A DNA stretch of 64,000 bases. It comes from a virus. Its lineage: Duplodnaviria > Heunggongvirae > Uroviricota > Caudoviricetes. Location: the IMG/VR virus record IMGVR_UViG_3300028888_000043, positions 169,756-233,755 of that record, one strand, 5' to 3'. Each line of letters begins with the position of its first letter. Position 1 is the first letter of the stretch. The notes below the pieces were generated by a model. It saw only the letters and a list, made by a program, of their open reading frames with translations. It was not told where the DNA came from and ran no database searches. The translations under genes were made by a program, and so were the position numbers. Below, in pieces: positions 54-62,764 of the stretch.

Positions 54-61
54 CATAAATA
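54..61 (+). promoter_or_regulatory. late promoter CATAAATA
   Basis: One mismatch to T4 late TATAAATA; 21 nt before ATG 83. Confidence 0.7.
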
Positions 62-82
62 TTCTATATATGTATTTTCATT

Positions 83-1393
83 ATGAAATTTGAATTTGAC
101 CATAGGACTGGTACAATGCAGCCAAAGAAAGATGACAATATTTATTTTGCCCAGTCACAAGGTGGTGGATTAATTGTCGATGACAAGAAGAACAATATCA
201 GATATATCATAGAAAGGAATGAAAGGATTACCAAGCTGTTCGGTAGTTTTGACAGAGACAAACTCAATTTCTATGATATGAGGGATGCCAGGATGATTGC
301 TGACAGGGTTGCCAGACTTCTTGGAAGAGACCACAAATATTCTGATTTCCATTATTTCCTGAAAGGTTATCATATGTCAGAGAATTTTGTCCAGAGTTGT
401 TCAAGTTTTTTGGACGAATCAGTGTGGGCAGACATTCATAAAAGGAGTAATGGCCAGGGCGCTGTGAAGAAAGAAGACTATGGTAGGGTGATAGGAACTC
501 TTGAAGATGGCACAAAACTGGTTATGCCTTATGACTATGTAGATAAAGGTGAACTTGTTGAGTTTGATGATGGAAACATTTATTCATTTGATGAATATAG
601 TGATGGTGATATTTATATTGCAGTGGTGAATCATAATTATGATGATACTTATTATAAGTATGATGAGGATACTGATGAAGGTGTCAATATGGTTGAATGT
701 TTCAAATGTGATGATTCATTGAGAACTGAAAATAATTTTGGAGCATTAAAGGCTTTGATGTTACAGGATGAATTTGATGATGAAGATTTTGAATATCTGG
801 ATGTTAATGTTCAAACAAATTGTTTTGAATTTACATTCTTTGACAACAAATTTAAAATCTACACCGATAAGGATAGTGCTGTTGAAGATGCCATTGAAAT
901 GGAAAAGGATTTACTTGAATCAGAAAGATTTACGAAAGATTTAGTTGAGCGTTTCAGGAATGCCCTTGGGGATGGTTTTCTTGATGAGAGTGAGATGAAA
1001 GATGCACTCAAAGAGAGTCAGGAATTTTATTACAATGATTTAAGTGAGGATGAGGCCATTGACAATTTGATTAGAAACAATATCATTGAAGACAGTGAGG
1101 AATATTTTGAACTGGATGAAGATGGGGAAATAGATCATTCACAACCAAAGTTTGATTATCAAGATTATTGTGATGCATATGTTGAAAAATGGATTGATAG
1201 TATTGATGATATTATAGATGAATATCTTATGAATTATGGATATGATGGTATTGAGAATTATATAGATATTGATAAACTTGCTGAACTTATTGTTAAAGCG
1301 GATGGTCCTGGAAATGAAATTGCAATGTTTGATGGTTTAGAAAGAGAAGAGACAGTGGATGATATAACATATTATATATATCGGGAAGAATAA
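83..1393 (+). CDS. acidic hypothetical protein with internal ESVWADIHKRSNG tag (putative virion-internal protein)
   Basis: 436-aa ORF; tag at nt 416-478 preceded by VQSCSSFLDE; late promoter upstream. Confidence 0.85.
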   Translation: MKFEFDHRTGTMQPKKDDNIYFAQSQGGGLIVDDKKNNIRYIIERNERITKLFGSFDRDKLNFYDMRDARMIADRVARLLGRDHKYSDFHYFLKGYHMSENFVQSCSSFLDESVWADIHKRSNGQGAVKKEDYGRVIGTLEDGTKLVMPYDYVDKGELVEFDDGNIYSFDEYSDGDIYIAVVNHNYDDTYYKYDEDTDEGVNMVECFKCDDSLRTENNFGALKALMLQDEFDDEDFEYLDVNVQTNCFEFTFFDNKFKIYTDKDSAVEDAIEMEKDLLESERFTKDLVERFRNALGDGFLDESEMKDALKESQEFYYNDLSEDEAIDNLIRNNIIEDSEEYFELDEDGEIDHSQPKFDYQDYCDAYVEKWIDSIDDIIDEYLMNYGYDGIENYIDIDKLAELIVKADGPGNEIAMFDGLEREETVDDITYYIYREE

Positions 1394-2138: not shown

Positions 2139-4022
2139 ATGAGTAAAAAAATTATTGGTATTGACCTCGGAACCGGTTTCTCCTGTGTTGCAGTTGTAGA
2201 GGGTGGTAAGCCGAAGGTCATTATTAATTCAGAAGGTAAGACCACCACTCCTTCTGTCATTTCATTCAGTGGTGATGAAATCAAGGTTGGTACCGCTGCC
2301 AGAAACCAGGCAGTGATGTATCCTACTGAAACAGTTTCATCCATCAAGCGCTTTATGGGTGAGAAGTTCAGCAATGTCCAGGATGAGGTTGCCAGGGCAC
2401 AGTATAAGGTGGTAAAGGGTAAGAATGACTTACCAAGAGTTGATATCAAGGGTAAACTTTATTCACCGGAGGAACTGTCCGCTATGATTCTTCAGAAGAT
2501 GAAGAAGACTGCGGAGGATTATCTTGGTGAGGAAGTGACAGATGCTGTCATCACCTGCCCTGCCTATTATGATGATACAGCACGCCAGGCTGTCAAGAAT
2601 GCCGGTGAGATTGCTGGTCTCAATGTGAAGAGGGTTATCAATGAGCCTACTGCTGCTGCACTTGCCTATGGTATCAGTACTGACAAGGCACAGAAGATTA
2701 TGGTGACTGACATTGGTTGCGGTACTTCTGACTTCACTATGTTGGAGATTGCTGATGGTGTCTTTGAGGTGATGGCCACTGATGGTGACACCCATCTTGG
2801 AGGTGATGACTTTGACCAGGTGATTGTCAACTGGGTTGTAGAAGAGTTCAAGAAGGAATATGGTACTGACATCTCAAGTGATTCTATGGCAATGCAGAGA
2901 GTGAAGAATGCAGCGGAGGAAGCAAAGATTGAATTGTCTTCCCTTACTTCCACTGACATCAACCTTCCTTATCTCTCACCTGTGAATGGTGTTCCCGCTC
3001 ACTTTGTGAAGAGTCTGTCCAGGGCCAAGTTCGAGCAGATGTCGGAAAGCCTCATCAAGAGGATTGTGGACAAGTGCAATTCCTGTCTTGCGAAGGCAAA
3101 GGTTGACAAGTCCAGTGTTGATGAGATTATCCTTGTTGGTGGATCCACCAGAATCCCTGCTGTCCAGGATGCCATTGAGAAAATCTTTGGAAAGACTCCT
3201 AACAAGACTGTCAATCCTGATGAGGCAGTTGCATCCGGTGCTGCTATCCAGGGTGCTATCCTTGCTGGTGACAAGGGTATGGGTGACATCCTTCTTCTTG
3301 ATGTCATTCCTCTTTCTCTTGGTATTGAAACTCTTGGTGGTGTGTTCACCAAGCTTGTTGATGCCAATACTACCATTCCAGTCAAGAGGACAGAGACTTT
3401 CACTACCGCTGCTGACAACCAGCCTTCCGTTGAGGTAAAGGTTCTCCAGGGTGAGAGACCTATGGCAAAGGATAACAAGCAGTTGGGTATCTTCCATCTT
3501 GATGGAATCATGCCGGCAAGAAAGGGTATCCCTCAGATTGAGGTTACATTTGACATTGATGCCAATGGTATCCTTTCTGTTTCTGCTACTGACAAGGCAA
3601 CTGGTAAGGCTCAATCTATCAGGATTGAGGGTAGTTCCGGATTGAGTAAGGAAGAGATTGAGAGGATGAAAGCAGAGGCGGAGGCAAATGCAGAGGCAGA
3701 TAAGAAGGAACTTGAAAGAATCCAGGTTCTCAATGCTGCCGAGTCAACCATCTTCCAGACAGAAAAGAACATCAAGGAGTATGGTGACAAGATTACAGAG
3801 GAACAGAAGTCTGAACTTGAGAATGGCCTCAATGCTTTGAGGGATGCTCTTGAACAGAAGGATGTGGATGCTTGTAAGTCCTGTATGGAAATCCTTTCAC
3901 AGTCCTGGTACAAGATTTCAGAGGAACTGTACAAGAACACAGGTGAAGCGCCTGGTGCCGGAGATACAGGTCAGACTGACAATCCATTTGGTGAAGGATT
4001 CAATTTCAACAATCCACAGTAA
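2139..4022 (+). CDS. dnaK: Hsp70 chaperone DnaK (phage-encoded)
   Basis: [65 protein letters not shown] motifs. Confidence 0.97.
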
Positions 4023-10378: not shown

Positions 10379-10972
10379 ATGGCAGAGAAAGAGAATAAAG
10401 AAATATTAAGGGACAGTATCGCTGACCTATTGATGGACAATGACATCAATCTCAATGATGACATAAATGAGAACACATTGACTTTCAGAAAGACTCCTTC
10501 CACAGTATCTCAATATGATATGATGACATTGGAACAGTCCCGGTCAAAGGCAAAGAAAGTGATGGAGTCTCTTCTTAAAGTTTACCTTTCTGAAAACTTC
10601 ATTTCAAAGAGTGAGTATGTCCAGGCAAAGGTGAACCTGGATGCTATGACTCTCGGTAACATCATCAACCAGATGGAAATCAGTCAGAGGGCAATCCAGA
10701 TTCTGATGGACAATATTGAGATTGGTGATGTCAATCCCAAACTATTTGAAGTACTCGGTAAACTCCAGGGTACATTCATTGACTTGGTGAGAGCACAGAC
10801 CAATTACATTGTAAATGTGAGTGATGAGTATGAGAAACTGGCACTGGATAAGGATACTGCAATAGATGCCAGTCCATCCACAGCAAAGGAAATTTCATCC
10901 GGATTCAAGTCCAACAGTCAGAAGGATTTGATGAGACTCATCAGGAAGGTTTCTGAAAAAGACGAAAAATAA
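10379..10972 (+). CDS. possible terminase small subunit (T4 gp16-like)
   Basis: Helical; NPKLFEVLGKL resembles the gp16 PRxxEV motif; C-terminal SQKDLMRLI; late operon. Confidence 0.45.
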   Translation: MAEKENKEILRDSIADLLMDNDINLNDDINENTLTFRKTPSTVSQYDMMTLEQSRSKAKKVMESLLKVYLSENFISKSEYVQAKVNLDAMTLGNIINQMEISQRAIQILMDNIEIGDVNPKLFEVLGKLQGTFIDLVRAQTNYIVNVSDEYEKLALDKDTAIDASPSTAKEISSGFKSNSQKDLMRLIRKVSEKDEK

Positions 10973-11514
10973 TGGTAAGGACATATAACATAGGTACGGA
11001 ATGTTATGCTATCATAACATCTCCAAATGAACCTGAATTCCTTCTTCCTGTAAAGATTGTCCTTCTGGAAAAATACACACAGGCAGAGAGGACTACATAT
11101 AAGGTGAAGATAAGGGAGATATTCGAGACTGACATCAACTATCTGAAAGAACATTTTAGTAATGTGAAGGTTTCAACCAATCTGAAAACTTTCAATCTCA
11201 CCACACTGTTGAGAAAAGGTGAGTTGGATTCCATCAAGACTATGAGTGAACTCATCCAGAAATTGAATGACAAACCATTCTATCTTGAAGACAACTATAT
11301 TGTTCCTGACAAGATTGGACTTGTTGATATGTATAATAAATTTGTGAAATACATCATCAATTATCATTTCAGGAAACTGTTCCAACTCACCAGTAGGAGT
11401 TTCCTTGCCAACCAACCTGTGTTCAACAACCAGAAGGATTTGTTTTTGAGAAGAGTTGAAAACCTTGGGTTTGGTGATGTACTGAAAAAATATGATTTGA
11501 AATTAGACATTTAG
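10972..11514 (+). CDS. hypothetical protein
   Basis: 180-aa ORF translationally coupled to 10379. Confidence 0.75.
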   Translation: MVRTYNIGTECYAIITSPNEPEFLLPVKIVLLEKYTQAERTTYKVKIREIFETDINYLKEHFSNVKVSTNLKTFNLTTLLRKGELDSIKTMSELIQKLNDKPFYLEDNYIVPDKIGLVDMYNKFVKYIINYHFRKLFQLTSRSFLANQPVFNNQKDLFLRRVENLGFGDVLKKYDLKLDI

Positions 11515-29118: not shown

Positions 29119-29943
29119 ATGACAGAAGAATTAAAGAATGTTACTGAAGAGCAGATTTCTGCTGCGGTAAAAAGAGTGGAAGAATTGCAGAAGGTCCGTA
29201 GTGACATTGTATCTTTCAAGGAAGAGTTAGTTGCACATCAGAAAGACCTGGCCAGTGCAGAGACTGTGTTTGGTGTTGGTACAAAGGAGTATGAACTCCA
29301 GAAAGATCATGTGGACCGCACTTTGTCTCTTATTGAAGAGGCACAGAAGAAGGAGGCTGAACTTGCTTTCAAGCAGTCAGAGTTGAAGCCTGTCCTGGAT
29401 GCTCTGGCAAAGAAGTTTGAGGATGCTTACAGAAATGATACTTCCAAGGAATATCATATCGAGATGGCCCCGAAACCGGAGAAAGATGATGAACCTATTG
29501 ACCCTTCAAAGGGTAAGAAGGTGTTCAAGCAGCTTCTTGATTATCTTAACAACAATGTTTCCTTCACTGCAAAGAGTGCTGTGAACCTTATGATTCTTGT
29601 CCGTAATATGGAGGAGAACAAACCCTGGGTGAACTCAAAGGAGTTTGATAATGTCATCATTCTCCGTTCAGCCAGTGTACTCAGTCTGTGGAGATCTATT
29701 ATGGAGGACTTCAATGGAAAGGGTTTCTTTGAAGCCCGTAAGTTCCTGGAGTGCTGGGCTAACTGCGGTCAGTCAATTTCTGATGCAGTCCGCCAGATTC
29801 AGAAGGACAATGCCGCTACCCGTCAGATTGGTACGGACCTCAATAATGTTGAGGAGGAATTCAACCGTAGCGAGAATGACCTTCCAAAGGATGAGGCAAA
29901 GCCGACAACCCAAGAGGAAGTTGATCCCAATGTGTCTGAATAA
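29119..29943 (+). CDS. helical/coiled-coil hypothetical protein
   Basis: 274-aa ORF with its own promoter. Confidence 0.8.
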   Translation: MTEELKNVTEEQISAAVKRVEELQKVRSDIVSFKEELVAHQKDLASAETVFGVGTKEYELQKDHVDRTLSLIEEAQKKEAELAFKQSELKPVLDALAKKFEDAYRNDTSKEYHIEMAPKPEKDDEPIDPSKGKKVFKQLLDYLNNNVSFTAKSAVNLMILVRNMEENKPWVNSKEFDNVIILRSASVLSLWRSIMEDFNGKGFFEARKFLECWANCGQSISDAVRQIQKDNAATRQIGTDLNNVEEEFNRSENDLPKDEAKPTTQEEVDPNVSE

Positions 29944-58040: not shown

Positions 58041-58066
58041 ACAAATTTTTAAGGTTGAACAATGTG

Positions 58067-58097
58067 AAAAGAGAGAGGTCAGAACCTCTCTCTTTTT
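58067..58097. terminator. bidirectional terminator
   Basis: AAAAGAGAGAGGT/ACCTCTCTCTTTT between convergent genes. Confidence 0.75.
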
Positions 58098-58665
58098 ATT
58101 TATCCTTTACCAATCTCACACAGAGTTTTGCTGTTCTGTCTGTGTCTATTATATCCATTATACTGTAATGATTAGTTAATGGTGTATAAAGGACATCATT
58201 ATCAGTAATGATAAAACAATGTACCGTTGAACCGGCGCTAACTTCTTCAGATGTCCAGCCCCAGTACTCTGTAAGATATGTGACTACTTCATTTCCATGA
58301 GTTACTGATGTATTGTAAATCATACCATTTCTATTGAATGTGAGGCCTTGAGATTTATTTGTAAAATATAAATAATCTTTGTTAGATTTCAGAACACAAT
58401 ATCTATCTAATTCATCAATATCTTTCCTTGTCGGTAATCTCCATCCTGAATTTTGAATCAATTCTTTGATTTCATCAAACAAGAAATGTATTTTTCCGTC
58501 ATATTTTAAATCTGCATCAGCCCAGTAGATAGACCCTCCCATATCAACAGGTTTCAGTTTGTGTAGGTTTTCTATCTCATCTTCCTTCCTGATGGCATCT
58601 CCATTACTTCTCTTGTGAATGTCCGCCCAGACAGATTCAGTTAATATGTTACTTAACTTTTTCAT
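58096..58665 (-). CDS. ESVWAD-tag protein with Fib_succ_major/CLec-like payload
   Basis: MKKLSNILTESVWADIHKRSNGDAIRKED; PVDMG..IYWA, GWRLPT, WTS, VRLVKDK. Confidence 0.85.
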   Translation of the reverse strand: MKKLSNILTESVWADIHKRSNGDAIRKEDEIENLHKLKPVDMGGSIYWADADLKYDGKIHFLFDEIKELIQNSGWRLPTRKDIDELDRYCVLKSNKDYLYFTNKSQGLTFNRNGMIYNTSVTHGNEVVTYLTEYWGWTSEEVSAGSTVHCFIITDNDVLYTPLTNHYSIMDIIDTDRTAKLCVRLVKDK

Positions 58666-59447
58666 AATTCATCATCGTCTTCATCATCTATATCATCTGT
58701 TCTCTGCGCACCTTCTTTCAGTTTAAGAAAGCATAAATCATCTGCACCAGATGGACTCTCGAATGGATCCATCTCATGGTTTGTAGATTCAACCCATCCA
58801 AGATTTGTATATGCTTCCCTTAAATCATTTTCAAGTTCCTCACGCCAGCCGTCTATGACAGGATAGAATATGGTATTGGCATCCAATATGTCATTTTTGT
58901 CATATTCAACATCATCAGGACAGTAATCTATACCTGCACTTACTTCAAAGCAGATGTTACTTAAGAAGTCAGATGTTGATAAGTCATTGAGGACAAATTC
59001 AGCATACTCCGACATATGGTTGTCAGTATATATCTTCTTTAAGTAATCTTCAAGTATCTTCTGGATTGGGTGATTGTTCATAGTGTCAACATATCCCTTT
59101 TCCATCATTTCCTTGATGTGTTCTTCAGGAGTTTTTTCAATATATTGGCGAAGTACATATATGTCATGGTTGTCCCGGCAGTACTCGCCATGTCCTACAA
59201 ACTCGCAGTTGTTTTCAAGTCTGATGGTGTTATCTGATGATTTGTCAAATCCAAAACCATCCCATTCCATCTCATAATCTTCAACATAATCTTCACCAAG
59301 TGTCATTACTTCCCTGGTGATGTTGTACTTGACACCATCAATAGTTACAAGAATACCAACATCTTCTTTTCTGAATTCATCACCATTACTTCTGCGGTGC
59401 ATGTCAGACCAGACAGATTCTTTCAGTATGTTACTTAATTTCTTCAT
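58662..59447 (-). CDS. ESVWAD-tag protein with acidic payload
   Basis: MKKLSNILKESVWSDMHRRSNGDEFRKED. Confidence 0.85.
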   Translation of the reverse strand: MKKLSNILKESVWSDMHRRSNGDEFRKEDVGILVTIDGVKYNITREVMTLGEDYVEDYEMEWDGFGFDKSSDNTIRLENNCEFVGHGEYCRDNHDIYVLRQYIEKTPEEHIKEMMEKGYVDTMNNHPIQKILEDYLKKIYTDNHMSEYAEFVLNDLSTSDFLSNICFEVSAGIDYCPDDVEYDKNDILDANTIFYPVIDGWREELENDLREAYTNLGWVESTNHEMDPFESPSGADDLCFLKLKEGAQRTDDIDDEDDDEL

Positions 59448-59454
59448 ATCATTA

Positions 59455-60372
59455 TTATTTATCTTTTACAAGGAATACATATAATCTGGTTTGGTGGATA
59501 TTGGAAGAATCAATGTTGAATTTTGACATATTGTCATATCCATAATCATATGCAAGGTTCTGCCATTTCTCATGTCTGTCTTTTGTCCAGGCATGGAATC
59601 CATAGATACTTTCTTCTGTCTTGATTCTCAATGTACCATTAGGGTATTCAAGCCATACATATCCAGTTCCATCATCATCTCTGTACCAACGTTTCCGGAC
59701 ATGTCTGAAATCAACCTGTTTCACCTCTTCAAGTGTAGGAAGCCTCCATCCATTGTTGTTGTAGTTCTCTACATCTTCAAAATAGAACTTATTTTTCCCA
59801 TCAATATCAAGAGCATCCTTGGCCCAGTAAACAGTTGTGTTCTCACCGAAGTCAACATATTCAGGATTGAATTTGTCTTCCTTTCTCTCTTGTTCACCAT
59901 TACTTCTCTTGTGTATGTCAGACCAGACAGATTCTTTTATATCAACTATGTCAATGTTATGAAGGATGAAATTCACAAGGTTCAAGAAAGTGTTGTTTGA
60001 AATTGTACCATCCTTTTCCTTAATCCTGAATGTTGTAGTGTTTATTTTTTCAATGTTGAAATTATCTGCAATCACAACAGTTTCCAATCCAACATTATCA
60101 AGGAGGTCAATGAGGATGTTATATATCTTGTCATTTGAAAAGTTTATTGACACTTCAAGACCCATAACTATTTCAACATTGACATGCTTTGTATTTTGCC
60201 CTTCCATAAAGTTGACATACTCAACCTTATCCTTATAGTTTGAATTGGTATATTCATACAACTGTTCCGGGTCAAAAAGATTGACATCATCTTCCTTTTT
60301 AACCTGTTCTCCATTACTCCTCTTGTGTATATCAGCCCATACAGACTCATCTATTTTACTTAATTTTTTCAT
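59455..60372 (-). CDS. two-module ESVWAD-tag protein (module A plus CLec-like module)
   Basis: Tags at nt 60348-60289 and 59934-59875; second module has EYVDFG..VYWA, GWRLPT, LVKDK. Confidence 0.85.
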   Translation of the reverse strand: MKKLSKIDESVWADIHKRSNGEQVKKEDDVNLFDPEQLYEYTNSNYKDKVEYVNFMEGQNTKHVNVEIVMGLEVSINFSNDKIYNILIDLLDNVGLETVVIADNFNIEKINTTTFRIKEKDGTISNNTFLNLVNFILHNIDIVDIKESVWSDIHKRSNGEQERKEDKFNPEYVDFGENTTVYWAKDALDIDGKNKFYFEDVENYNNNGWRLPTLEEVKQVDFRHVRKRWYRDDDGTGYVWLEYPNGTLRIKTEESIYGFHAWTKDRHEKWQNLAYDYGYDNMSKFNIDSSNIHQTRLYVFLVKDK

Positions 60373-61001
60373 ATGCTTCTCAATATACCATAAGAATCCA
60401 CAAGGTCATCAATGGGTTTTATATTGTTATAATCAAGTTCATTCTCCTTGCAGTACTTCCAGAAAGGACATCTCTCTATGTCAGGATCTTGGGTCTTGTT
60501 CTCAATGAATGCCTTTATCATATCATCCTTTTTGGCATTTCCCTTTCCTGACAGTCTCTTCTTTCCTTCTGTTGGTGAGATGATGACCAGACAGTCCTCC
60601 CCAAAGTACTCCAGGAGTTTGATTCTCAAAAATGAGTTGAACAATACCAGGTCAATGGTGGAGGAAGAGATACTTCCATATGAGAATCCTTCCAATCCTA
60701 TTATGACACTATCATCACCTACAATCTCTACAAGTCTGTTGGAGATTTTGTGTGCGATCATCTCCGCAGCCGCCATCTTGGTCTTCTGTTCCTCCCTGTA
60801 ATCTTTCTTGTCTATATGCCTGGTGTAAGGATTCATCTCCATGAACTTGTTCAGTTCCCTGTGATAGTTGAATGTTTTCATCTTTCCACCTTCCCAGTCC
60901 TTACCATAATCATCAAAGAAGGAGATGAAAGAATACTCTCCATCTTTATAAACACATATCGCCGGGGATATGAGACTGAAATCTATACCTATCTTTATCA
61001 T
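60369..61001 (-). CDS. RuvC-like (RNase H fold) Holliday junction resolvase
   Basis: IGIDFSL, IGLEGFSYG, ISPT..KK...GKGNA.K..M, DDLVDSY. Confidence 0.8.
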   Translation of the reverse strand: MIKIGIDFSLISPAICVYKDGEYSFISFFDDYGKDWEGGKMKTFNYHRELNKFMEMNPYTRHIDKKDYREEQKTKMAAAEMIAHKISNRLVEIVGDDSVIIGLEGFSYGSISSSTIDLVLFNSFLRIKLLEYFGEDCLVIISPTEGKKRLSGKGNAKKDDMIKAFIENKTQDPDIERCPFWKYCKENELDYNNIKPIDDLVDSYGILRSI

Positions 61002-61984
61002 TTTAGCAATATACCTTTTTCACCTTCATATTCAGGATCTTCTCTCAATATATATCCTTTCTTTGAACCGTATAAATTATATTTATATAAATAGAATGTT
61101 TTGTTCTCCAATCTATATCTTATACCCCTCTTTTCTCCCAAAGTCATTTTTGCCCATGTTATTGGAGTATATGATCTACCTCCATTAACATTCAATGAAT
61201 ATATATCACTACCATATGGAGTTATATGTTCTATTTGGAGTCTCCAATAATGTTCATTTTTAAAATATATATCCACCTTTTCAGGCCAATCATCTTTTGT
61301 TATTTTTCTGATTTTGTTTATCACAAATTCATATGCTATATCAAGACCCCTTAACTGTTCTTTTGTATATTTTGGTGCTTGTGGTAATGCTATAATTGCC
61401 CACCAGTGTTCTGGGTTCTGTTCTGGAAGGTCTTCCTTTCTGAACATACTTCCATTACTTCTACGGTGAATATCTGCCCAGACTGATTCATTCATATTAT
61501 CATTTTTAACAAGTATCCTCGTAAAGAAAACATTTGTATTTTCCAAAAGGAAATTTATAATTTCAATGAAGAACTTATTTGATGATTTACCAGTCTTAGG
61601 TGTAATCAAAAAATTATCAGTAAAATTTCTGTGTATGTGATACTTTTTGACATTATATTTTCTCCTGATCTTGTCAAATAATTTATCATCTTTATTCAGG
61701 AAATGATCCCAGATAAGTACTGAATTATCAGTGCAGTCATATTGTATGAACCAAGTTGATTTTGTACCAAGTTCAGTCTCAAACATAGGAACAGTTATAA
61801 CATCATTCAAATCTTTAAAGATATAGAAATCAGTATCTACATTTTTATAGAGGTCTCGAAGATATTCAACAAAACCTTGTGCATCAAGAATATTAGGGTC
61901 ATCTTCTTTTCTTGTCTGCTTTCCATTACTCCTCTTGTGCATATCTGCCCATACAGATTCATCTATTTTACTTAACCTTTTCAT
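60998..61984 (-). CDS. two-module ESVWAD-tag protein (module A plus basic module)
   Basis: Tags at nt 61960-61901 and 61489-61430. Confidence 0.85.
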   Translation of the reverse strand: MKRLSKIDESVWADMHKRSNGKQTRKEDDPNILDAQGFVEYLRDLYKNVDTDFYIFKDLNDVITVPMFETELGTKSTWFIQYDCTDNSVLIWDHFLNKDDKLFDKIRRKYNVKKYHIHRNFTDNFLITPKTGKSSNKFFIEIINFLLENTNVFFTRILVKNDNMNESVWADIHRRSNGSMFRKEDLPEQNPEHWWAIIALPQAPKYTKEQLRGLDIAYEFVINKIRKITKDDWPEKVDIYFKNEHYWRLQIEHITPYGSDIYSLNVNGGRSYTPITWAKMTLGEKRGIRYRLENKTFYLYKYNLYGSKKGYILREDPEYEGEKGILLK

Positions 61985-62733
61985 GCATTAAACCAGTCTC
62001 TTGTGTATTCTCTGTATTTCTTGAAGTTGACAAGGTTGTTGAGATTGGCAGGAAGTGCTATGCTACATCCATCATAGAATGTCCAACCAACAAAATCCTC
62101 ATCCCTCAATTCCGGGAAGTCGTCACATATGGAGTCTATGAATTCCTCAATTTCAAAGCCATCATTGTCACAGGCATATGAATATACATCTCCCTCATCA
62201 ATGAGTTTTAACAGATAATCTCCACCATAATCACATTTCCTGTCAGCTGCACCGATGATGATTGATTTTGTAGAAGGTGCATGACTGAAATACTGTCCTA
62301 CTTCCTTTAACTTGGTAGCAATACCTCTGCATAGTGAGATATAATCCTCTTCTGATACCTCATTGGCAATATCCTCTTCATATTCAACAAGGTTATCATA
62401 TGTGTAGAAATCCGCTATAAGTGAATCTCCATGTTTGCTATCATATATGAGATAGTCATATGGTGCTTTCCAATTTGATATATTTACCATCTCATCAGGA
62501 GAGAAATTCATATATCTTGCATTGTCAATGGAAACACCATAAGTGAGGTTGGGATTCTTCTCCAATATTTCTTTTATCCAATAATCATATCTACAGGATG
62601 AGTCCTTGATGATGATATCCACTCCAAGACAAGTGGAGACTTTCTTTCCGTCTTCCTTTCTGATGACATCTCCATTGCTTCTCCTGTGTATGTCTGCCCA
62701 GACGGATTCATCAACTTTACTTAATTTCTTCAT
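61981..62733 (-). CDS. ESVWAD-tag protein with acidic payload
   Basis: MKKLSKVDESVWADIHRRSNGDVIRKED. Confidence 0.85.
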   Translation of the reverse strand: MKKLSKVDESVWADIHRRSNGDVIRKEDGKKVSTCLGVDIIIKDSSCRYDYWIKEILEKNPNLTYGVSIDNARYMNFSPDEMVNISNWKAPYDYLIYDSKHGDSLIADFYTYDNLVEYEEDIANEVSEEDYISLCRGIATKLKEVGQYFSHAPSTKSIIIGAADRKCDYGGDYLLKLIDEGDVYSYACDNDGFEIEEFIDSICDDFPELRDEDFVGWTFYDGCSIALPANLNNLVNFKKYREYTRDWFNA

Positions 62734-62756: not shown

Positions 62757-62764
62757 TATTTATG
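62757..62764 (-). promoter_or_regulatory. late promoter CATAAATA driving the tag-protein operon
   Basis: 23 nt before ATG 62733. Confidence 0.7.

Follow-up and report, generated by a model that had tools for sequence, protein, structure and literature searches.

A 20-residue tag behind a putative head-protease site on modular proteins of a T4-related phage

The internal proteins IPI-III and Alt of bacteriophage T4 enter the prohead by means of an N-terminal capsid targeting sequence and are processed by the head protease gp21, which cuts after L/I-x-E; for capsid loading, the first ten residues of IPIII are enough (PMC9026906). In phiKZ, 201phi2-1 and SPN3US, inner-body and ejection proteins form large paralogous sets of head proteins, cut after Glu at several S/A-x-E sites by gp175/gp245 (PMC9026906, PMC7411985). 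Polyvalent proteins (Iyer et al. 2017, PMC5512222) combine many exchangeable domains per polypeptide, are predicted to be packaged and delivered with the DNA, and are possibly cut. The stretch analysed here, called the window below (64,000 nucleotides, G000:C1:169756-233755), is part of the IMG/VR record of an uncultured phage, G000, and contains at 58096-62733, on the minus strand, an operon of proteins that share a 20-residue tag with the consensus S(V/I)WxD(I/M)H(K/R)RSNGxxx(R/K)KED. Positions are those of the window unless G000 or a contig is named. Even if the cleavage proposed below should be wrong, the tag family itself is undescribed: it comprises hundreds of clusters, with a tag that appears separable and genome-specific dialects.

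The likeness to the T4 internal proteins comprises a propeptide of about ten residues ending in aliphatic-x-Glu, a probable late transcription, a protease of the gp21 family, and unrelated payloads behind one N-terminal signal. One leader, MIPDFKTYIGE, resembles the start of T4 IPIII, which we take to be MKTYQEFIAE. Unlike the T4 proteins, the present ones possess a conserved 20-residue peptide after the putative cut, chains of modules with up to seven tag-plus-module matches, leaderless non-late paralogues and dialects. No Pfam or PHROG family of IPI, IPII, IPIII or Alt matched any member, and the likeness appears to be one of function, not of homology. With the phiKZ-type proteins the family shares the large paralogous sets with several putative cuts after Glu, a gp21-related protease and a very large capsid, whereas those phages belong to another lineage with another P3 preference, and no common post-cleavage tag is described for their proteins. 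What separates modules here is the recurring tag and its protease-like site, whereas polyvalent proteins are processed by a built-in peptidase; none of the polyvalent-protein signature domains (MuF, ArdC/MPTase, ART and others), nor a built-in peptidase, was found in a Pfam scan of 40 large members. Particular to this system are the conserved peptide after the putative cut, two putative routes of exposure, and the dialects.

Tagged genes, presumptive late promoter and distribution

The genome of G000 (411,604 bp, 39% G+C, estimated completeness 94%) is that of a T4-related phage. A hidden Markov model of the tag finds 43 copies in 30 of its genes, a family larger than the initial annotation of the window had claimed. 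The window holds eight copies, each matching with an E-value of 1e-11 to 1e-15. All five annotated open reading frames (ORFs) are present on the minus strand and start with MK(K/R)LS..(I/V/L)xE plus tag; present too are the second copies in the proteins of 305 and 328 amino acids (aa), at residues 148 and 167, and the eighth copy in the ORF at 83-1393, at residue 113. Directly in front of the eight copies stand LTE, LKE, IDE, IKE, IDE, MNE, VDE and LDE, as had been read. The six genes at 58096-62733 lie back-to-back or overlap (Table 1) and form one operon, probably late, of a modular protein family that is phage-specific. Five of them carry the tag, as proposed; the sixth, a RuvC-like resolvase, does not.

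Both tagged loci of the window stand behind the octamer CATAAATA, again in line with the initial annotation. It occurs 17 times in the window versus 4.0 expected, and 101 times in the genome, 75 of these copies no more than 60 nt ahead of the start of a gene on the same strand. It also precedes the genes for capsid, portal, protease-scaffold, terminase and gp5-like proteins, and is the presumptive late promoter core of the phage. Leader-bearing genes belong to operons headed by the octamer, adjoining terminase and gp5-like genes; members outside the window flank both. The claim of late expression gains support for the operon, which shares its promoter core with capsid, portal, protease and terminase genes, but not for about one third of the family genes, which by promoter context are not late genes. 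The 14 leaderless members lack CATAAATA, and one of them has TATAAATA.

Four contexts of the tag are found in G000: leaderless; behind the leader MK[KR]LSxIxE; behind the leader MIPDF[KR]TYIxE (leader C); and internal, after aliphatic-x-Glu. A further leader form, MKKLSE, is also recorded. The leaders MK[KR]LSxIxE and MIPDF[KR]TYIxE occur in G000 only together with the tag.

The tag had been described as unknown from any family, and no family of Pfam, PHROGs or NCBIfam covers it. A profile of tag plus common module, searched against 1.8 billion metagenome proteins, retrieves 695 clusters at 50% identity, 483 of them with E <= 1e-10; many carry two to seven tandem modules, and the source names, where recorded (few), read 'hypothetical protein' only. 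The tag family is absent from a scan of 185,579 species genomes. The 305-aa protein has no tblastn match, and the Hsp70 gene of the window no megablast match, among GenBank phages. A pattern scan of IMG/VR with the common-module alignment found no relative; relatives are nonetheless reachable through a search with the capsid protein. These include G001 (345 kb, capsid protein 92% identical to that of G000) and the tag-less G002 (363 kb, 96% complete), whose capsid protein shares 75% identity. L011 and L013 are contigs of relatives, and L011 holds an operon syntenic with that at 58096-62733.

Two AlphaFold models were made from family alignments, one of a leader-C protein with the common module and one of the 189-aa protein of the window. 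The first has a predicted local distance difference test score (pLDDT) mostly above 90 for residues 30-172 and almost throughout below 50 for residues 1-26. The second has a pLDDT of 79-97 per 10-residue block for residues 31-189 and below 50 for residues 1-30. Over the two models the payloads score mostly above 85. The tag forms a short helix in both, not packed against the payload. By these models it is an element separable from the payload folds, as initially supposed, and not an integral part of a domain.

The junction before the tag and the leaderless paralogues

Among 403 tag copies from fetched homologues, P1 is Glu in 401, P1' is Ser in 389, and P3 is I, L, V, M or T in 395. Three unrelated leader types converge on the aliphatic-x-Glu end. 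The phage encodes a protease domain of the gp21 family (PF03420, Peptidase_S77; 37.3 bits against a cut-off of 27; G000 269685-270026). It is part of a 659-aa protease-scaffold ORF (G000 269592-271571, L007:1408-3342), in whose scaffold-like part a 13-residue unit (H-x-D/N-Y-L-A-E-x-M-N-x-x-I) is repeated about nine times in tandem. Where T4 gp23 has its maturation site, the sequence of the capsid protein is KQALNE|SALGY. LNE|S is conserved in 20 relatives, with INE|A in a relative of 32% identity, and is predicted to be the phage's own capsid maturation site. The gp21-type site postulated by the initial annotation recurs in about 400 tag copies, and this putative cleavage junction matches both the T4 rule and the predicted capsid site. 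The C-terminal part of the protease-scaffold protein also has phi-x-E|S/A sites (AVNE|S, KVEE|S), kept in relatives.

Modules join and part at the same place. A separate 173-aa gene of L011, with its own leader MIPDFKTYLKE, encodes a counterpart of residues 164-328 of the 328-aa protein (52% identity, E 7e-56), and it is precisely at the E|S junction that the two modules are divided. ORF 83-1393 and a protein of G002 correspond over the N-domain, with 55% identity, as far as FLDE|S, where G002 reads FINE|N; past this junction the C-terminus of the G002 protein is unrelated and untagged.

The 14 leaderless paralogues of G000 (55-173 aa, at 29-67 kb and at 286.7 kb) sit in non-late arrays of small genes. 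All start exactly with M-S(V/I)W, and an upstream in-frame start is impossible. Of about 70 leaderless relatives from metagenomes, nearly all start with M-S(V/I/L)W. Leaderless members have the Ser directly after the Met, so the Glu is present only when residues precede the tag. Leaderless tags without Glu, fusion and fission at the junction, and a junction without a tag in G002 together suggest that the junction serves processing rather than being part of a binding motif. A Ser after the initiator Met permits removal of this Met by methionine aminopeptidase, so leaderless members and cleaved leader-bearing members would share one free N-terminus. The suggestion of the initial annotation that a free SVW N-terminus matters gains support from these paralogues.

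Dialects, proposed mechanism and rival explanations

Tags are near-uniform inside a genome and different across genomes. The dialect of G000 is W(A/S)D(I/M)H(K/R)RSNG, that of G001 W(N/G)DIR(K/R)RGNG, that of L011 WSDIHKRSNGEQ and that of L013 WGDIYKRGAGEQ. Leaderless and leader-bearing copies speak the same dialect in G000 and in G001, a Q-D dialect occurs in leaderless as well as leader-bearing metagenome proteins, and a SAWG dialect is found among the homologues (P0312 ESAWGEM, P0313 ESAWGDM, P0286 MSAWGEM). Identity in the 12-residue tag core amounts to 90% for copies of the same multi-tag protein and to 57% for copies of different ones. At the variable positions 7 and 10, uniformity is seen in 47 of 50 multi-tag proteins, versus 1.0 expected after shuffling. 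Synonymous codons differ at nearly every tag position between copies, for which reason a DNA-level repeat or recent gene conversion was rejected. Because the tags are uniform despite this codon divergence, and the payload modules of the same proteins only about 26% identical, selection by one shared partner is likelier than recent gene conversion. In the same 114 proteins leader C is 81% conserved and the tag core 60%, which suggests that the leader has a conserved reader and the tag a fast-evolving one; dialects and conserved leader point to one fast-evolving tag partner. Two candidates for this partner find no support: the common module, in which no column covaries with dialect (maximum normalised mutual information 0.21, against 0.44-0.55 inside the tag), and the scaffold repeats, which are nearly identical in G000 and G001 despite different dialects.

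The explanation we prefer, at about even chances, is that late members would be loaded into the prohead as T4 internal proteins are by the capsid targeting sequence, and that cleavage after Glu would expose a common N-terminal address peptide, also shown by the leaderless paralogues. The family unit would consist of an N-terminal propeptide (MK[KR]LSxIxE or MIPDFKTYIxE) or the end of the preceding module, the flexible tag, and an exchangeable payload. The gp21-type head protease would cut after the Glu, taking leaders off and splitting multi-module proteins, each module then starting with the Ser of the tag. The 14 small paralogues of the non-late arrays would gain the same N-terminus through removal of the initiator Met, and the exposed tag would serve as common address peptide for one lineage-specific partner. 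Packaging, cleavage, timing, injection and partner binding of the tagged proteins are what we infer from sequence comparison and models.

Several points weigh against this loading and cleavage. The operon includes an untagged resolvase. Leaders with phi-x-E[SAG] show no general excess outside the family, where the first 16 residues contain the pattern in 17 of 479 genes, about the chance rate. The hydrophobic P3 equally fits the periodicity of an amphipathic helix, and neither the covariation analysis nor the scaffold-repeat comparison found a tag partner. The T4 capsid targeting sequence is not followed by a conserved peptide after the cut, so that, by this analogy, the tag would be without precedent there. 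The nameable payloads (C-type-lectin-like, BspA-type leucine-rich repeat (LRR)/DUF285, Peptidase_M15_4, GNAT, WYL_2) are binding or wall-acting and suit surface display as well as injection.

The main rival, which we consider rather unlikely, draws on these payloads, which are typical adhesion or wall-acting modules: the tag would be an uncleaved short linear docking motif that tethers lectin-like or LRR binders and enzymes to a hub, for instance on the virion surface or a fibre, with the Glu part of the motif and multi-module proteins left intact. The modelled flexibility of the tag between folded modules agrees with it, and genome-specific dialects suit any co-evolving partner. A docking motif does not account for leaderless members that never keep the Glu or an extra residue and sit in non-late small-gene arrays, for three unrelated leader types that all end in aliphatic-x-Glu, for the same junction in the tag-less G002, or for modules that are either fused or separate leader-bearing genes, split exactly at the junction. 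Encapsulin cargo-loading peptides are short conserved flexible peptides that address unrelated cargo to a shell of HK97 fold; to our knowledge they are not exposed by cleavage and have no tie to a protease site or to early paralogues. The tag resembles them as a short conserved flexible peptide on unrelated proteins, with one partner, its capsid binding being putative. The tag itself could then be the capsid-loading peptide, binding the inner shell or scaffold, with leaders as mere removable caps, and this we regard as less probable again. In its favour, the tag is what all members have in common, segments of the capsid protein recur in two of them, and the late members have head and packaging genes as neighbours. 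Capsid protein and scaffold repeats, however, are nearly unchanged between G000 and G001 while the dialects differ, leaderless members of non-late arrays would precede proheads, and leader C is the more conserved part.

Recruitment of a chaperone or protease of phage or host by the tag, as a folding or turnover signal, is improbable. A DnaK-like gene (2139-4022) lies near the tagged ORF 83-1393, a J-domain protein is encoded at G000 356449 and a Cpn10 in L011, but genomic co-occurrence is the sole link of these genes to the tag, and the degenerate binding motifs of chaperones would not yield genome-specific dialects. Least credible is that the tag is a mere conserved N-terminal piece of one expanded paralogous family, with no separable role. 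Homology of 13-16 modules behind the tag favours this, whereas BLAST finds about 25 payloads of G000 to be unrelated, the tag is followed by at least three distinct folds or Pfam families and is unpacked against both modelled payloads, and its copies evolve in concert despite a payload identity of about 26%.

Should loading, cleavage and exposure hold, the T4 capsid-targeting principle would have been expanded among certain gut and rumen phages of very large size. They would use a two-part code, a conserved removable loading leader plus a lineage-specific exposed peptide for a second interaction, on more than 40 modules per genome and common to early proteins too. The code would give a sequence rule that predicts particle-borne proteins of uncultured phages, with the tag as a handle on their targets, and a natural portable peptide pair for loading and addressing cargo in phage capsids. 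As a tentative extension, which we rate as doubtful, the tag would be a phage-wide address label requiring a free N-terminus, exposed by the head protease on DNA-carried proteins and by Met removal on first-made ones, so that, once a new cell is infected, one fast-evolving partner (a host hub or phage organiser) would be the common target of the injected and the early proteins. On this view, chains of tag and module in tandem would serve to deliver many copies.

Payloads, neighbouring genes and look-alikes

Table 1. Features of the operon and of the second tagged locus (positions in the window; nt, nucleotides).
Feature	Position	Strand	Remarks
Late promoter core (putative) CATAAATA	62757-62764	-	24 nt 5' of ATG at 62733, first gene of the operon
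250-aa protein	61981-62733	-	Leader MKKLSKVDE; tag nt 62644-62706; acidic payload, no known fold; orthologue in syntenic operon of L011
328-aa two-module protein	60998-61984	-	Leader MKRLSKIDE; tag 61895-61957; common module; MNE + tag 61424-61486; second payload
RuvC-like Holliday junction resolvase, untagged	60369-61001	-	PHROG 159, E 1.5e-13 over residues 1-207
305-aa two-module protein	59455-60372	-	Leader MKKLSKIDE; tag 60283-60345; common module; IKE + tag 59869-59931; C-type-lectin-like domain (weak Lcl_C match)
261-aa protein	58662-59447	-	Leader MKKLSNILKE; tag 59355-59417; very acidic payload, net charge about -41, no known fold; L011 orthologue
189-aa protein	58096-58665	-	Leader MKKLSNILTE; tag 58573-58635; C-type-lectin-like (Lcl_C / Fib_succ_major-like) domain; end RLVKDK
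16-bp hairpin	58064-58099		Between convergent genes
Late promoter core (putative) CATAAATA	54-61	+	22 nt 5' of ATG at 83 (ORF 83-1393)
436-aa protein	83-1393	+	112-residue N-domain ending FLDE; tag nt 419-481; 324-residue payload, net charge about -66

Payloads of G000, grouped by BLAST, comprise 13-16 modules of one domain of about 140 aa, the common module; three of another; two lectin-like; and about 25 singletons. The sequence after the tag, initially described as divergent, is so for the many singletons, but the common module and the lectin-like domain each occur in two window proteins. Several payloads are extremely acidic. That of the 250-aa protein has no match in Pfam and PHROG and nothing usable in the protein atlas, and that of the 261-aa protein none above threshold in Pfam, PHROG and NCBIfam.

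The lectin-like payloads of the window match Lcl_C/Fib_succ_major (PF07603/PF09603) weakly (15-16 bits versus cut-offs of 34-35); PF07603 is present on four homologous clusters, and one large family member has it with E 2e-9. Foldseek with the 189-aa payload gives nothing at E <= 0.001; weak rows include 8q4e, the C-terminal domain of Legionella Lcl (probability 0.94, TM-score 0.51 by target), and LOX-1. These weak rows of C-type-lectin-like fold agree with the weak Pfam scores and with PF07603 on some homologues. For the common module, Foldseek finds nothing significant. VIA-align gives as best match the C-terminal 'double wing' domain of T4 MotA (6k4y_M, Z 6.8, root-mean-square deviation 3.1 over 100 residues) and reaches Z 4.5-5.7 against type III secretion chaperones, all below the trust level of Z about 8.

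Pfam families on the 40 large members are DUF285/BspA-type LRR in six, GNAT in two and Lcl_C in one; a Peptidase_M15_4 payload is found in the operon of a relative, and WYL_2 on one leaderless member. The library of effectors proposed by the initial annotation finds no support in these payloads: the nameable ones are lectin-like, BspA-type LRR, a cell-wall peptidase, GNAT, and the module with MotA C-terminal-domain-like or chaperone-like scores, and no classic toxin or anti-restriction domain was recognised. Identification of the GNAT domain as a RimI-type N-terminal acetyltransferase was rejected (27.5 bits versus a cut-off of 86, a generic match only).

In the syntenic operon of L011 a 383-aa protein (L011:11654-12805) starts with MKKLSKI, has no tag there, and continues with Peptidase_M15_4 (E 4e-22); KMNE|tag comes next, followed by a lectin-like domain, and cleavage at this KMNE|tag junction would part a cell-wall peptidase from a binder. 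The position of the resolvase, which has no match in NCBIfam, is conserved in L011, G001 and the tag-less G002. The hairpin between the convergent genes is likely the terminator of the operon.

Downstream of ORF 83-1393 the window encodes a 214-aa protein (1393-2037) with the start MVLNFNGYIINE|A and a long tail rich in Lys, Glu and Asp, followed by the gene of a full-length DnaK-like Hsp70 (2139-4022). The J-domain protein occupies G000 356449-357219, and the Cpn10 gene of L011 is GroES-like.

A 1029-aa protein is encoded 2.1 kb past the window end (L002:2092-5178, G000 235847-238936), with a GNAT N-domain (Pfam E 1e-8) and six tag-led modules. The GNAT heading this chain might modify the new Ser termini. 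The C-terminus consists of IYE|C, 40 residues 50% identical to capsid residues 65-104, a run of Lys residues and a conserved tail containing Cys and His, and the architecture is kept in the metagenome relatives P0007, P0012, P0116 and P0134. A second capsid copy is found in a 65-aa leaderless tag protein (L003:1258-1452, G000 29257-29454), the remainder of which is a copy, 39% identical (E 5e-7), of capsid residues 98-130, with a weak match to the Pfam Gp23 model too.

Neither tag nor common module was found in G002. Eight DUF285/BspA-LRR proteins of this genome (L042:656-4971, L037:3602-5235, L043:703-1275) start with MGILxNLTxEYFGExERxED (8 pattern matches, control 0), and some of the genes lie at syntenic places of tag genes, adjoining resolvase and terminase. 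This start may be a shortened relative or an analogue of the tag. A 183-aa protein of G000 (L001:16520-17071, minus strand; G000 358019-358570) starts with MMPSWKQFLNE|GILSNYRNEREGRKL, i.e. a leader-C-like start and then a tag-like stretch, and its G002 orthologue (L043:1299-1838) reads MRDFLPDFSTFVSE|GALTNYRKEKDG; this protein may represent the ancestor of the leader-plus-tag unit. A second look-alike of leader and tag, MIPSFNYYNLLKE|SVSLGDL, is located at G000 10386-11315. Directly 5' of the capsid gene, a 262-aa untagged protein (L009:149-937, G000 272140-272928) possesses the lectin-like motifs LPSGNLWAA and GGLWEMPTAEDFEELI, as in tagged payloads.

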